Assembly (NCBI GenBank): GCA_965205405.1 | Contig: OZ242169.1 | Span: 333,826 to 397,825, forward strand | Direction of reading: 5' to 3' | Source of the DNA: Gammaproteobacteria bacterium | GTDB lineage: Bacteria > Pseudomonadota > Gammaproteobacteria > Eutrophobiales > Eutrophobiaceae | DNA length: 64,000 nt | Shown here: in pieces, positions 1,793-6,620 of the stretch | Layout: every line of letters starts with the position of its first letter | Position numbering within the stretch: the first letter of the stretch is position 1 | The notes under the pieces: generated by a model | What the model was told of the DNA's origin: nothing | What the model saw: only the letters and a program-made list of their open reading frames with translations | Database searches by the model: none | Program-made: the position numbers and the translations under genes

Positions 1793-1895
1793 TTTGCGAG
1801 GTCAGAGTAAAATTATTTGATGGATGGGGGTTATGCATGAATCCCGATTTTGGGGTCAGAGTAAAAATTCTAACGAATTTCTTACTCTGACCCCA
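1793..1895. mobile_element. MITE-like element, copy 2: a degenerate half-copy plus a short full hairpin
   Basis: TIR variants GGTCAGAGTAAAATTAT (1798-) and TTTTGGGGTCAGAGTAAAAAT...TTACTCTGACCCCA (1848-1895). It starts 5 bp from the ubiE start codon and overlaps the stop of the DUF971 gene. Confidence 0.8.
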
Positions 1896-2274
1896 GGTTC
1901 TGTGTGACCTGGCGAGTGTAACCAGCTTTTTCCAGTGCCGCCAGGTATGACTGCCAGTGTCGCTCCCGATTTGCTCCCAGTTGATAAAGATAATCCCAGG
2001 TATAAATGCCGGAAGCATGGCCGTCATCAAAACACAGCTTCAGCGCGTAACTTCCCATAGGCTCAATCGCGTCGATATTCACATTTTCCTTGCCCGTCTG
2101 TAATATCTCCTGACCCGGACCATGCCCGCGTACTTCGGCAGAGGGTGAATAAACCCGTAGCAGCTCACAACTCAAGCTGAAACTTTTCCCGTCTGCGTAC
2201 TCCAGCACTAACTGACGCGACTTTTTCTTCAGGCTGACGGATATCGGCCTAGTGGTGGCTGTTTCTGTAGTCAT
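1882..2274 (-). CDS. DUF971 / gamma-butyrobetaine hydroxylase-like N-terminal domain protein
   Basis: A 130-aa ORF. Its C-terminal ...NLGSE* is encoded by the MITE terminal repeat. Confidence 0.55.
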   Translation of the reverse strand: MTTETATTRPISVSLKKKSRQLVLEYADGKSFSLSCELLRVYSPSAEVRGHGPGQEILQTGKENVNIDAIEPMGSYALKLCFDDGHASGIYTWDYLYQLGANRERHWQSYLAALEKAGYTRQVTQNLGSE

Positions 2275-2291
2275 TCAGGTAACAAGCTACC

Positions 2292-2376
2292 ATATTTGGG
2301 GTCAGAGTAAAAACTCATATACGGTCTATAAGGAATCAGCAAAATCTGAAATGAGTTTTTACTCTGACCCCAAATA
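2292..2376. mobile_element. MITE-like element, copy 3 (extended stem ...AAAAACTCAT/ATGAGTTTTT)
   Basis: It exactly fills the gap between DUF971 (start 2274) and hslU (stop 2379). Confidence 0.85.
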
Positions 2377-2378
2377 TA

Positions 2379-3698
2379 TTAAAGGATATATCTGGTTAAA
2401 TCCTCATCCTTGATCAGGTCATCCAGGTGCTCGGCAACGTATTGAGCATCGATATTGACAGACTTTTTCCCCTGGTCGGGGGCGTCAAAGGATAAGGTTT
2501 CAAGCAGACGTTCCATGACCGTGTGCAACCGACGGGCGCCGATATTTTCGGTGGACTCATTGACCTGCCAGGCTATTTCGGCAATGCGCGCTATACCGTC
2601 TTCGGAAAATGATAACTCCACCTGTTCGGTTTGCATAAGCGCTGAATATTGCTGTGTCAACGAAGCATCCGGCTCGACCAGGATGCGGCTGAACTCAGCC
2701 ACACCCAGGGCATCGAGTTCCACCCGGATCGGCAGCCGCCCCTGCAGTTCGGGTATCAGGTCGGAAGGTTTGGAAAAATGAAACGCACCGGAGGCAATAA
2801 ACAGGATGTGGTCTGTTTTCACCATACCGTAGCGGGTGGTCACCGTGGAGCCTTCCACCAGCGGTAGTAAATCACGTTGTACACCTTCCCTGGAAACGTC
2901 TGCGCCGCTGACCTCGGCGCGGCGTGTGACCTTGTCAATCTCATCCAGAAAAACCAGGCCGTTCTGTTCCATGTTCTCCAATGCCCTGAGCTTTATCTCA
3001 TCCTCATTCACCAGTTTCGCGGCTTCTTCCTCGGCAAGGATCTTGAGCGCCTCCTTGATCCTCAGTTTTCTAGTGCGTTTTTTCTCGCTGCCCATACTCT
3101 GAAACATGCCCTGCAACTGACTGGTCATCTCTTCCATTCCCGGCGGCGCCATGATCTCGACACCGATCGCAGGCATATTCACCTCCACCTCGATTTCCTT
3201 GTCATTCAACTCGCCGGTTTTCAGCATTTCTCGGAACTTTTCCCTGGTTGAACTGGTTTGTTCTTCTTCGGGGCCCGATCTGGGACTCGGCAACATGATT
3301 TCCAGCACCCGGTTTTCCGCGGCCAGTTCAGCCCGGTCCCGAACTTTTTCAAGCTCTTCTTCACGGGTCATCTTCACCGCGACGTCCGCCAGGTCACGTA
3401 CGATGGATTCGACGTCTCTGCCAACGTAGCCCACTTCGGTAAACTTCGTTGCCTCAATCTTGATAAACGGGGCATTCGCCAGCCTGGCCAGACGCCTCGC
3501 TATTTCCGTCTTTCCTACGCCGGTGGGGCCGATCATCAGGATGTTCTTGGGCGTAATTTCATTTCTTAATTCTTCGTTGAGTTGGGAGCGTCGCCAGCGG
3601 TTGCGTAACGCGATCGCAACCGCGCGTTTAGCCGCGTCCTGGCCGATGATGTGTTTATCCAGTTCGGCAACGATCTGTTTCGGTGTCAGTTCTTCCAT
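2379..3698 (-). CDS. hslU: ATP-dependent protease ATPase subunit HslU
   Basis: A 439-aa ORF with a Walker A motif (GPTGVGKT) and a ClpY-family sequence. Confidence 0.95.
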
Positions 3699-4252
3699 TA
3701 TTTTGTTGCTCCTGCAGCGGGCAGTTCCTCAATCGTGATATTCCGGTTCGTATAAACGCAGATGTCTGCGGCAATGGCCAGAGCCTTCTCAACAATTTCG
3801 CGCGCATCCAGTTCAGTGTTTTCCATCAGCGCCAGCGCAGCGGCCTTGGCATAAGCCCCTCCGGAACCGATAGCCATGATTCCGGTTTCAGGTTCTATCA
3901 CGTCGCCATTCCCGGAAATAAGAAGCGAATTGGACTTGTCCACGACACACAGCATGGCCTCCAGGCGCCTCAACATCCTGTCCGTACGCCAGTCTTTGGC
4001 CAGTTCAACCGCCGAGCGGACCAGGTGCCCCTGGTATGATTCCAGTTTTGCCTCGAAGCGTTCAAACAGTGTAAACGCATCCGCAGTCCCACCGGCAAAT
4101 CCTGCCAGTACCTGCTCGCGGTAAAGTTTCCTGATTTTGCTGGCATTGCCCTTCATTACGGTATTGCCAAGCGATACCTGGCCATCTCCACCAACTACCA
4201 CTTTATCACCCCGTCGTACTGACAGGATCGTTGTTCCTCTGAATTGCTCCAA
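3698..4252 (-). CDS. hslV: ATP-dependent protease subunit HslV
   Basis: [10 protein letters not shown]...GDGQVSLG matches the HslV N-terminus and it overlaps hslU by 1 nt. The catalytic Thr is preceded by a 6-aa extension (MEQFRG). Confidence 0.9.
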
Positions 4253-5511: not shown

Positions 5512-5534
5512 GAGTTATCATTATAATGAGAGAA

Positions 5535-5616
5535 CTTGGGGTCAGTGTAAAAACCCATTATCAGAATTTGAGAAACTTATAATCAGAATAAAACCGGGTT
5601 TTTACACTGACCCCAA
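5535..5616. mobile_element. MITE-like element, copy 4 (GTCAGTGTAAAAA variant TIR)
   Basis: It lies in the divergent intergenic region between the two ATP-grasp genes. Confidence 0.75.
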
Positions 5617-5623
5617 CATATTT

Positions 5624-6553
5624 ATGAAAAACATCGTAATCTTCTCCGAAAATGACGGCTGGCACGAGCAGCGACTGGCCGGCGCATTCAACCGGTATGG
5701 AGTACGGACACAGGTCGTCTCTTTAAGGGATTGCCATATTGGTTTTGAACAAAGCCTGACGGGGCTGCACATCCCCGGTTTTCCCGATACTCTGCCGGAT
5801 GCCGTTTTTGTACGGGCCGTTGCCGCGGGAAGTTTTGAAGAAGTGACGTTCAGGTTGGATATCCTGCACGCATTGAAACATTCCGGCGTCGTTGTTTATA
5901 ACGACGCCGTCAGTATCGAACGCACCGTGGACAAAGGCATGACCAGTTTCCTGCTGATTAAACATCAGGTTCCGACACCGCCAGTCTGGGCCTGTGAAAC
6001 TGCTGAAGCTGCCCACGAAGTCATCCATACACAACTGCAAAAAGGGCACTCTATCGTACAAAAACCCCTGTTCGGCAACTGCGGGCGGGGCCTGCAACTG
6101 ATCGAGTCTGAGGATTATCAACTGGACGCGGACCTGATCAACGGCGTGTATTACCTGCAACGATTCATCGACCAGGACGATCACAATGGTCGTGACTGGC
6201 GGGTTTTTGTCATCAACCACCGGGCGGTCGCGGCGATGGAACGTATCTCCGATCACTGGGTAACCAACCGCGCGCGTGGTGGCAAATGCCTGCCGGCTGT
6301 TCTCATGCCGGCATTGCGGCAACTGGCCGAAGCTGCTTCCAAGGCAACCGGCATCCTGTATGGCGGCGTTGATATTATCCGTGATTCACAGGGCGATTTC
6401 CTGGTGCTGGAAGTCAACAGCGTCCCGGCATGGCGGGGGCTGCAATCCGTTTGCTCAATCGATATCCCCGACCTGTTGGTTAAGGACATCCTTTACCGCC
6501 AGTTTAATTGGGGTGAGAGTAAAGGAAATTTGGGAAATTTGGGGTCAGAGTAA
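5624..6553 (+). CDS. RimK-like ATP-grasp ligase (alpha-L-glutamate ligase family)
   Basis: The start is moved from the ORF-track value (5489) to the ATG at 5624, just past the MITE. MKNIVIFSEN... matches the RimK/MptN-like fold. The final codons GSE* are encoded by MITE copy 5. Confidence 0.7.
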   Translation: MKNIVIFSENDGWHEQRLAGAFNRYGVRTQVVSLRDCHIGFEQSLTGLHIPGFPDTLPDAVFVRAVAAGSFEEVTFRLDILHALKHSGVVVYNDAVSIERTVDKGMTSFLLIKHQVPTPPVWACETAEAAHEVIHTQLQKGHSIVQKPLFGNCGRGLQLIESEDYQLDADLINGVYYLQRFIDQDDHNGRDWRVFVINHRAVAAMERISDHWVTNRARGGKCLPAVLMPALRQLAEAASKATGILYGGVDIIRDSQGDFLVLEVNSVPAWRGLQSVCSIDIPDLLVKDILYRQFNWGESKGNLGNLGSE

Positions 6554-6617
6554 AAATACTTAACGATAAATCAACTCCACCTTCGAAACTAACTGTATTT
6601 TTACTCTGACCCCAAAT
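6507..6617. mobile_element. MITE-like element, copy 5, preceded by a degenerate half-copy (6507-6526)
   Basis: The full element spans about 6536-6617. Its right TIR ends 3 bp before the methyltransferase ATG at 6621. Confidence 0.85.
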
Positions 6618-6620
6618 TTC

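Follow-up and report, generated by a model that had tools for sequence, protein, structure and literature searches.

A hairpin repeat, probably of REPIN type, that supplies stop codons and C-terminal residues at gene boundaries of an uncultured gammaproteobacterium

The window analysed here is a stretch of 64,000 nucleotides (64 kb) from an uncultured gammaproteobacterium (contig OZ242169.1), and the element under study is a short inverted repeat, the arms of which form the ends of protein-coding genes in it. At two junctions, i.e. that between a DUF971 gene and ubiE and that between a RimK-family ligase gene and a DNA methyltransferase gene, the upstream open reading frame (ORF) runs into an arm of the repeat and ends at a TAA inside it. 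An initial annotation of this DNA had noticed that the arm reads L-G-S-E-stop in one frame, and the stops of both genes are indeed TAA codons within the arm. In our view the repeat is likely to be an element similar to REPINs, i.e. hairpins formed by paired repetitive extragenic palindromic sequences (REPs), most likely moved by a Y1 transposase of the REP-associated tyrosine transposase (RAYT) type, and the tails that it provides are likely to be tolerated because they fall at gene boundaries.

The arm was searched for in the window as the 15-mer TTGGGGTCAGAGTAA, allowing at most two mismatches on both strands, with the expectation taken from dinucleotide-preserving shuffles. We found 31 matches where 0.05 were expected, which collapse to 14 sites per 64 kb; according to a greedy ORF map, all 14 sites are intergenic or at gene ends. 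The matches pair up as inverted repeats with perfect complementarity over as much as ~26 nt, (A)GATATTTGGGGTCAGAGTAAAAATAC, and the arm written in full is (A)GATATTTGGGGTCAG(A/T)GTAAAAATAC with the conserved outer motif GATAT. The interior between the arms is 35 nt long in the commonest form and varies in sequence among the copies, subfamilies of which have near-identical interiors. RNA folding of five single or compound copies predicted perfect stems of -33 to -44 kcal/mol (z from -5.6 to -11), and a nested copy reached -81 kcal/mol (z -14). The neighbours of the copies in the window are all housekeeping genes, with no transposase among them, and a search of the entire window against Rfam gave zero matches at the gathering score.

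For comparison, 80 genomic loci were fetched around the ligase gene, and 94 loci (L001-L094) were inspected overall. The genes and repeat units at and around the two junctions are as follows.

1054..1788, minus strand: ubiE/COQ5 methyltransferase gene, with its ATG at 1786-1788
1796..1810: degenerate solo arm GCGAGGTCAGAGTAA; its orthologue in L004, L005 and L011 is the right arm beside the ubiE ATG
1850..1896: short 47-nt hairpin with arms at 1850-1864 and 1882-1896 and a small loop
1882..2274, minus strand: DUF971 gene (Pfam GBBH-like_N), the last five codons of which (LGSE*) are arm sequence
2292..2377: copy 3, flanked by the DUF971 ATG and the hslU stop (2379-2381); L081, L001 and L002 have no copy at this site
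5536..5616: copy 4, with the AGTG variant of the arm, between the divergent ATP-grasp and ligase starts and ending 7 nt from the ligase ATG; L081 has a copy too
5624..6553, plus strand: RimK-family ligase gene (domains RimK and Rimk_N), in which everything after ...YRQF is repeat-derived
6508..6522, plus strand: degenerate duplicated left arm TTGGGGTGAGAGTAA with one mismatch, which corresponds to the left arm in L003, where the orthologous element is single
6534..6620: copy 5, with a perfect 26-nt stem of -39.7 kcal/mol
6621..7442, plus strand: N6/N4 DNA methyltransferase gene, the ATG of which touches the right arm of copy 5

The DUF971 ORF ends in ...TRQVTQNLGSE*, with its TAA inside the arm at 1882-1896, so that the translation and the arm match agree with the NLGSE* ending reported by the initial annotation. 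The unit that it called copy 2 does place an arm at the DUF971 end, but is really the 47-nt hairpin plus the separate solo arm at 1796-1810. The ubiE ATG lies 7 nt from this degenerate arm, or 3 nt if the ATTT extension is counted; the 5 bp given earlier is therefore essentially right, the figure depending on the boundary chosen. In the window, 93 nt separate the DUF971 stop from the ubiE ATG, with the additional solo arm between them, and folding of the 111-nt stretch 1790-1900 on the minus strand, which contains the short hairpin, gave -33.5 kcal/mol. The DUF971 homologues of 96-98% protein identity have the ...NLGSE ending in common, and nearly all of the next homologues (83-97% identity) end in ...GY(K/T)R(Q/R/K)(L/V)Q*. 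The native form of the junction is seen in seven species-level relatives, L003, L008, L010, L013, L015, L016 and L019, and in L081-L083, where DUF971 ends in ...RQ(L/V)Q* and overlaps ubiE by 4 nt (caATGAacc); its TGA stop lies within the ATG-A of ubiE, and the gene calls of the near-isogenic loci L081-L083 overlap accordingly. L081 is 98% identical to the window at the nucleotide level over ubiE, DUF971 and hslUV, and is empty at the positions corresponding to 1792-1899 and 2292-2377. The sequence ACACAGAACC before the arm in the window is a mutated remnant of the native stop/start overlap: with ATGA changed to CAGA and one base added, the frame continues via T-Q-N into L-G-S-E-stop.

The history of this junction is more complex than the insertion that had been assumed, since ~25 nt of divergent DUF971 tail accompany the element. 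This tail is of the type found in L004 and is unlike that of the 98%-identical L081; furthermore, the window allele is common to L002 and L084-L086, and is not found in the nearest relatives L001 and L081. The divergent tail and the sharing of the allele beyond the closest relatives point to allele replacement by recombination, not to simple insertion of the element into the native sequence of the window, and alleles bearing the element would thus have spread by homologous recombination as well. A simple tree-like history of the alleles is ruled out by the same sharing pattern, and on a neighbour-joining tree of three proteins the junction states are incongruent with the tree. Across the loci, the insertions at this junction are of at least four structural types.

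Type 1, window, L002 and L084-L086: the TAA of the arm ends DUF971
Type 2, L004, L005, L011 and L021: a degenerate duplicate of the ubiE start, 21-32 nt long, stands before the element
Type 3, L020: DUF971 ends in ...TTGPE* within a diverged arm
Type 4, L001: an unrelated 151-nt palindromic element gives a TAG

In the second type, the duplicate (ATGAACCAGACC..., the first ubiE codons) precedes the element, so DUF971 keeps its native stop and ubiE restarts beyond the element; at 21-32 nt (L004, ~6300-6450) this duplicate is far longer than a normal target duplication. One DUF971 homologue, P0014 (138 aa), has a frameshift near its end and reads through the ubiE start duplicate into the arm (...MNRPVDFKVRGQSKNLTNFLL*). 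The palindromic element of the fourth type (L001:6358-6508, arms TAGCCCGGATATTGCACCAG) ends DUF971 (...GYKR*) at a TAG formed by its own first three bases; neither the window nor any other locus has this element, L001 being the nearest species-level relative. The hairpin has been maintained at its site, its orthologue in L002 showing a compensatory double change (T-to-C and A-to-G), GGGGCCAGAG pairing with CTCTGGCCCC.

At the second junction, the ligase, the homologues of which bear the name tetrahydromethanopterin:alpha-L-glutamate ligase (RimK/MptN-like), starts at the ATG at 5624, in agreement with the starts of its orthologues. Its C-terminus, ...QFNWGESKGNLGNLGSE*, is reached at 6553, the TAA lying within the arm 6539-6553, which is the left arm of copy 5; the ...NLGNLGSE* ending described earlier is thus found as stated. 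The contribution of a degenerate half-copy holds as well: the arm at 6508-6522 (TTGGGGTGAGAGTAA) is read in another frame, frame 2, as NWGESK. The methyltransferase ATG at 6621 directly adjoins the perfectly complementary arm at 6595-6620 and lies 5 nt past CCCCAA, so the earlier distance of 3 bp after copy 5 is again essentially right, given that it depends on the boundary and can be put as direct abutment. In L004, L009, L012 and L013 the junction is native, the ligase stop overlapping the methyltransferase start (gtcATGAcgc). L003 carries an element orthologous to copy 5, at the same site after ...YRQF and with the same interior, which its ligase reads in frame 2, ending in ...NWGQSKNTQR*; in the window and L032 the left arm has been duplicated, so that the frame is shifted and the second arm is read as L-G-S-E-stop. 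A leader of 45-50 nt between an arm remnant and the methyltransferase ATG is present in L001 and L081 and has been lost in the window. The ligase tail of L004, L009, L012 and L013, ...QFPESEQKFLMS*, stands where the arm begins in L003 and matches the arm at 13 of 17 bases, which about 3% of shuffles equal; this is suggestive of, and does not establish, a fossil arm in which TAA would have changed to CAG. Since both junctions were natively ATGA overlaps, there was no 5' untranslated region (UTR) to be replaced at either. The idea that insertions had replaced the native ends without destroying the genes therefore stands for the C-terminal residues and stops, which come from the element, and does not stand for the 5' UTRs. 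The genes with repeat-derived ends are still intact and conserved.

Downstream of the ligase, the loci vary in content: L001:10971-13438 holds a second, longer methyltransferase paralogue and an ATPase-like ORF, and in L086:1001-3762 there are a RAMA-domain methyltransferase, a restriction enzyme of the HinfI family and a Transposase_mut gene. The methyltransferase of the window appears to be an orphan.

The same kind of gene end recurs across the clade. Among the 80 loci, the arm core was found only in L001-L021, L026, L029 and L032, all of which are metagenome-assembled genomes (MAGs) of uncultured Gammaproteobacteria, and in none of the loci from Methylococcales and other lineages (~50% identity). 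The element occurs in size forms of 26, 45 and 77-87 nt, and the arm TAA or a decayed descendant of it ends genes of at least six families. The instances found in addition to those of the window are the following.

Ligase (MptN-like), ending at the arm TAA: L026, L032, L093, L094
Methyltransferase, ending at the arm TAA: L013, L084
Methyltransferase, arm TAA decayed to CAA, which adds one to three residues (Q or QKL): L007, L008, L010
YiiD_C protein, ending at the arm TAA: L002, L013; with a decayed stop in L010
Inositol-monophosphatase-like protein, ending at the arm TAA: L005, L015
ATP-grasp protein, ending at the arm TAA: L009
Y1 transposase, with its stop within the arm in frame 3 (a TAA overlapping the arm end): L086
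Y1 transposase, passing through the arm in frame 2 and stopping in the interior: L089

In L094, the methyltransferase ATG lies 8 nt past the arm TAA, and its first codons resemble the opposite arm. Every ...LGSE-type tail inspected at the DNA level is arm sequence.

The link to a transposase comes from the relatives. L086, which shares the DUF971 allele of the window, has a Y1_Tnp gene between ubiB and yiiD; a copy 83% identical to it is present in L010 and a remnant of its first 20 codons in L013, and Y1_Tnp occupies the syntenic ubiB-yiiD position in L010, L013, L086, L089 and L091. The Y1 (IS200-like) proteins of L086 and L010 pass the Pfam PF01797 threshold, and their best NCBIfam match is NF047646 (REP-associated tyrosine transposase), with 69.6 and 67.2 bits respectively, below the cutoff of 80. 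Their sole PDB match is 4ER8, the E. coli TnpA-REP (E = 3.8e-5), and some of the homologues carry the name RAYT at JGI. Most of the Y1 protein clusters are found on one or two contigs. The genes are associated with arms of the repeat: a 26-nt palindrome, GGGGTCAGAGCAwwTGCTCTGACCCC, stands on each side of the Y1 gene in L010; the decayed remnant of L013 lies between a left and a right arm; and in L091 a Y1 gene (2001-2696, 231 aa) is enclosed by the arms at 1843 (plus) and 2759 (minus). The 4.7-kb locus of L092, a Spongiibacteraceae MAG in which the gene has other neighbours, contains just two arms, and these bracket the Y1 gene. Furthermore, L089 has a hairpin upstream of the Y1 gene and an arm at the gene end, and L090 has a hairpin beside the gene.

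The arm is not equally open in all frames. In frame 1, an ORF entering the arm from outside meets a stop after four codons in 29 of 31 cases, and in frames 2 and 3 it continues for a median of 20 and 17 open codons, compared with 22 from random window positions. As the conserved stop lies in one frame per arm only, the proposal that stops in several frames act as an insertion buffer is not upheld. At arms with at least 80 open codons upstream, the three frames are used in the ratio 24:13:13, frame 1 being the commonest, and its excess is larger among clearly real genes. Such a bias would be consistent with selection favouring the shortest tail; as the numbers are small and non-independent, it is not decisive. 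Many further genes have their stop codon at the outer arm edge, 5-8 nt ahead of the GGGG core. Regarding the terminator or ribosome-binding-site (RBS) function that had also been suggested, a terminator scan of 800-7000 called no element as an intrinsic terminator, the stem being followed by AAATAT and no U-tract, and no Shine-Dalgarno motif was found at the four abutted starts; there is thus no sign of either function. The native overlapping junctions are without such a motif too, and only 16 of 49 window genes, with crudely chosen starts, have a Shine-Dalgarno-like motif. In a promoter scan of the same region the total number of matches was below shuffle expectation, one match using TTTACA of the copy 4 arm.

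From these observations we propose that copies are made in trans from single-stranded hairpins, leaving no target duplication, by a presumably single-copy RAYT-type Y1 enzyme. As the genomes are gene-dense, with many neighbouring genes touching or overlapping, the copies that survive would be those placed precisely at gene boundaries. Displacement of the native stop by a copy, or by a recombined allele bearing one, would let the ORF enter the arm, one frame of which reads (Y)-L-G-S-E-TAA. The cost in frame 1 being only 4-6 extra residues on a non-conserved tail, such alleles would be tolerated and are presumably roughly neutral, and frames 2 and 3 give longer tails, which are rarer in real genes. 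At both junctions, the native ATGA overlap has been split by the element, and the downstream ATG now stands where the hairpin stem ends. By analogy with REPs elsewhere, the hairpin probably acts on the mRNA, either blocking 3' exonucleases or disturbing termination where the stop lies in or near the stem.

Several observations weigh against this REPIN-type explanation. The NCBIfam RAYT score of 69.6 bits falls short of the curated cutoff, and the Y1 genes of L010, L086 and L090 are C-terminally cut by an arm, so that the truncated transposases may be inactive. No RAYT gene or Y1_Tnp match was found in the window, the expected ubiB-yiiD position of which is beyond the left edge, and L084 and L085, which have the window's DUF971 allele, have repeats and nothing else between ubiB and yiiD. 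Neither a GTAG nor a CGTC tag stands at the outer end of the arm consensus, (A)GATATTTGGGGTCAGAGTAAAAATAC, and the single arm is not itself palindromic, unlike classical REPs. The frame-1 excess is modest, the counts including orthologous duplicates and some spurious ORFs. Finally, the distribution of the DUF971/ubiE alleles is not tree-like.

Three other explanations have to be weighed against it. That the ...LGSE* tails are native, their likeness to the repeat being coincidental or derived from gene ends, has next to no probability. Although the recurrence of the peptide alone would be compatible with it, orthologues without the arm have no tail, the same 13-15 nt are present 31 times and mostly outside genes, and unrelated proteins bear the tail only where the arm exists. 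The arm-less orthologues and the near-isogenic L081 refute it. Since the tail is missing where the arm is missing, and an arm underlies every ...LGSE tail inspected, the tails must derive from the element; LGSE C-termini without the repeat, which the initial annotation had named as the finding that would contradict it, were looked for at the DNA level and no such case was seen. The same annotation had called the repeat a miniature inverted-repeat transposable element (MITE). A classical MITE would be a deletion derivative of an insertion sequence with a DDE transposase, mobilised by this transposase and inserted with target-site duplications. The repeat does share with MITEs its terminal inverted repeats, small size, lack of an ORF or any coding capacity, many copies and subfamilies with near-identical interiors, and its palindromic outer ATAT might mask a TA duplication. 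However, the one clean filled/empty pair (2292-2377, window versus L081) has 7 nt of filler and no target-site duplication: the sequence is GGTAAC|C|ATTAAAGG at the empty site and GGTAAC-AAGCTACC-[element]-ATTAAAGG at the filled one, with no direct repeat, the remaining pairs being unusable since they are too diverged or occupied by unrelated palindromic elements. Moreover, no DDE transposase with these ends was found in the window or in the 94 loci; the sole gene bracketed by the arms, and the only cargo seen, is the RAYT-like Y1 gene, bracketed five times and once in another bacterial family, and the 26-nt simple palindromes that share the core are typical of REPs and not of MITEs. The bracketing of a Y1 gene together with the missing target duplication indicates a REPIN-type element rather than a DDE-derived MITE; the MITE label is probably that of the wrong family, and a classical MITE is highly unlikely.

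It is also unlikely that the repeat is a selected module for gene boundaries, in which the arm TAA would serve as a safety stop and the hairpin as a stabiliser of the mRNA 3' end or as a decoupler, or with coupling retained. The geometry would suit such a role at the ligase/methyltransferase junction of the window, where the stop lies in the 5' arm and the ATG 0-12 nt past the 3' arm, in L003, where the stop lies in the loop and the ATG 12 nt past the 3' arm, and at the DUF971/ubiE junction of L020; nevertheless, this geometry is forced by any insertion into a 4-nt overlap, and at DUF971/ubiE in the window the stop is 93 nt away from the downstream ATG, with a solo arm in the gap. The paired change in L002 preserves the stem, but in a DNA palindrome such a change can come from conversion between the arms and needs no selection on RNA. 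The downstream genes have no Shine-Dalgarno motif either natively or after insertion, and the frame-1 excess (24:13:13) points in the same direction; on the contrary, the conserved stop is in one frame only, terminator- and promoter-like signals do not exceed those of shuffles, arm stops decay from TAA to CAA with no apparent harm, and close relatives thrive without the element. There is likewise only a small chance that the hairpin acts as a replacement coupling device, in which a ribosome ending at the 5'-arm TAA would melt the stem and free the start without Shine-Dalgarno motif at the foot of the 3' arm. If it did, downstream translation would stay dependent on the upstream gene despite the 70-90 nt inserted, and RAYT/REPIN systems would be a systematic source of new C-termini and even of N-termini, as with the methyltransferase of L094.

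The other sites of the repeat in the window are listed below.

941..1027: copy 1, with 26-nt inverted arms and a 35-nt interior, in the ubiJ-ubiE intergenic space, ~27 nt from the ubiE stop
12437..12491: short hairpin copy with a 7-nt loop, directly adjoining the stop (12492-12494, minus strand) of an inositol-monophosphatase-family gene
19771..19875: copy with a tandemly duplicated right end
22082..22193: copy with two additional partial right ends
32250..32330: copy beginning ~10 nt past a gene stop (32240)
34542..34681: nested copy, one element within the loop of another, short-form element
46634..46720: copy downstream of ilvC, with an interior near-identical to those of 34571 and 61280
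47805..47874: degenerate copy, with ilvC on one side and the gene for the small subunit of acetolactate synthase on the other
50207..50221, plus strand: solo arm
61274..61362: copy between divergent genes, with its interior in the orientation opposite to that of 46639

The nested copy suggests that the hairpin loop may be a target itself. Beside three copies, at 19860-19875, 22169-22193 and 47875-47900, the right arm has its outer end partially duplicated in tandem, the duplicated units being two to three CCCCAAATATC modules or ATATCC repeats. The interior at 61300-61335 is the reverse complement of 46660-46694, and that of copy 5 (6560-6594) has the reverse-complement orientation in L032 (~490-525) and L001:13516-13550 relative to the window and L003; such opposite orientations could come from inversion between the arms or from insertion either way round. 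An exact 16-nt direct repeat, GTAATGCTGAGAACTG, with wider similarity around it, lies upstream of hslV at 4302-4317 and 4385-4400 (83-nt spacing). In relatives, other unrelated palindromic repeat families, e.g. GGGGACGGACTTAAGTCCGTCCCC and GAAGGGTTCATGTAAGGTTTTCAGGACT...AGTCCTGAAAACC, occupy the same intergenic spaces, namely ubiJ-ubiE and ATP-grasp/ligase, in L081 (reverse complement, ~9090-9270), L002 and L001; the genomes of this clade carry several families of hairpin repeats. Two IMG/VR contigs labelled viral contain one exact 21-nt arm each (L087:6636-6656 and L088:2097-2117). As the scan of viral contigs gave only these two single-arm matches, a link to phages was dropped. A literature search with the arm sequence returned mammalian primers only, and a search for such repeats in sponge-associated Gammaproteobacteria found no paper.

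Stops and C-termini supplied by repeats are events of a known kind. What the filled and empty alleles and the several independent outcomes at the same junctions add is a view of how a selfish hairpin repeat remodels gene ends in compact genomes: stops are supplied, terminal residues are added or replaced, and translationally coupled pairs are split without the genes being killed. For annotation, short ...(Y)LGSE tails in this clade are to be read as repeat-derived, and gene callers will show spurious differences between orthologues. For classification, the RAYT-type link would extend the REPIN/RAYT picture to an uncultured lineage and to a type of arm without GTAG.

The closest known systems are the REPs and REPINs with their RAYT (TnpA-REP) transposases in Pseudomonas fluorescens SBW25 and E. 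coli (PMC3116915, PMC3337134, PMC5581495, PMC3479197), which typically carry GTAG or CGTC tags (PMC3733652). As in these systems, two short inverted arms and a spacer form a hairpin, the repeats are dense, clade-specific and almost wholly extragenic, with solo arms and clusters, and a Y1 gene is bracketed by cognate arms at a conserved chromosomal position, with no target duplication. Unlike them, the present repeat has no GTAG/CGTC tag and a non-palindromic single arm, its transposase is under the NCBIfam RAYT cutoff, and its host belongs to an uncultured gammaproteobacterial lineage. Overlap of arms with gene ends also looks commoner here (2 of 14 window sites, a small sample, and many more in relatives) than in SBW25, where 14 of 1,067 REP 16-mers overlap genes. 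In Coxiella burnetii, the hairpin repeats QMITE1 and QMITE2 share 1-50 bp with functional genes at their 3' ends and give a stop codon or C-terminal residues to ubiB, pntAA and mutT and an extension to enhC (PMC5896051). These are likewise small hairpin repeats that supply stops and C-terminal residues; however, they were classed there as MITEs with direct repeats, without any reported connection to a RAYT, and insertion into ATGA-overlapping gene pairs is not described. Palindromic mini-elements are tolerated in or at the ends of coding regions in other bacteria as well, where they alter protein termini or the expression of neighbouring genes: Rickettsia palindromic elements insert in frame inside ORFs, and the Correia elements of Neisseria have TA duplications, promoters and RNase III sites, in both of which respects the repeat of the window appears to differ. 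In E. coli, REPs within ~15 nt of stop codons reportedly make ribosomes stall and lead to tagging by tmRNA (Liang, Rudd and Deutscher, 2015). Here too a stable hairpin lies at or right after the stops of many genes, with the difference that the stop itself is often inside the stem.

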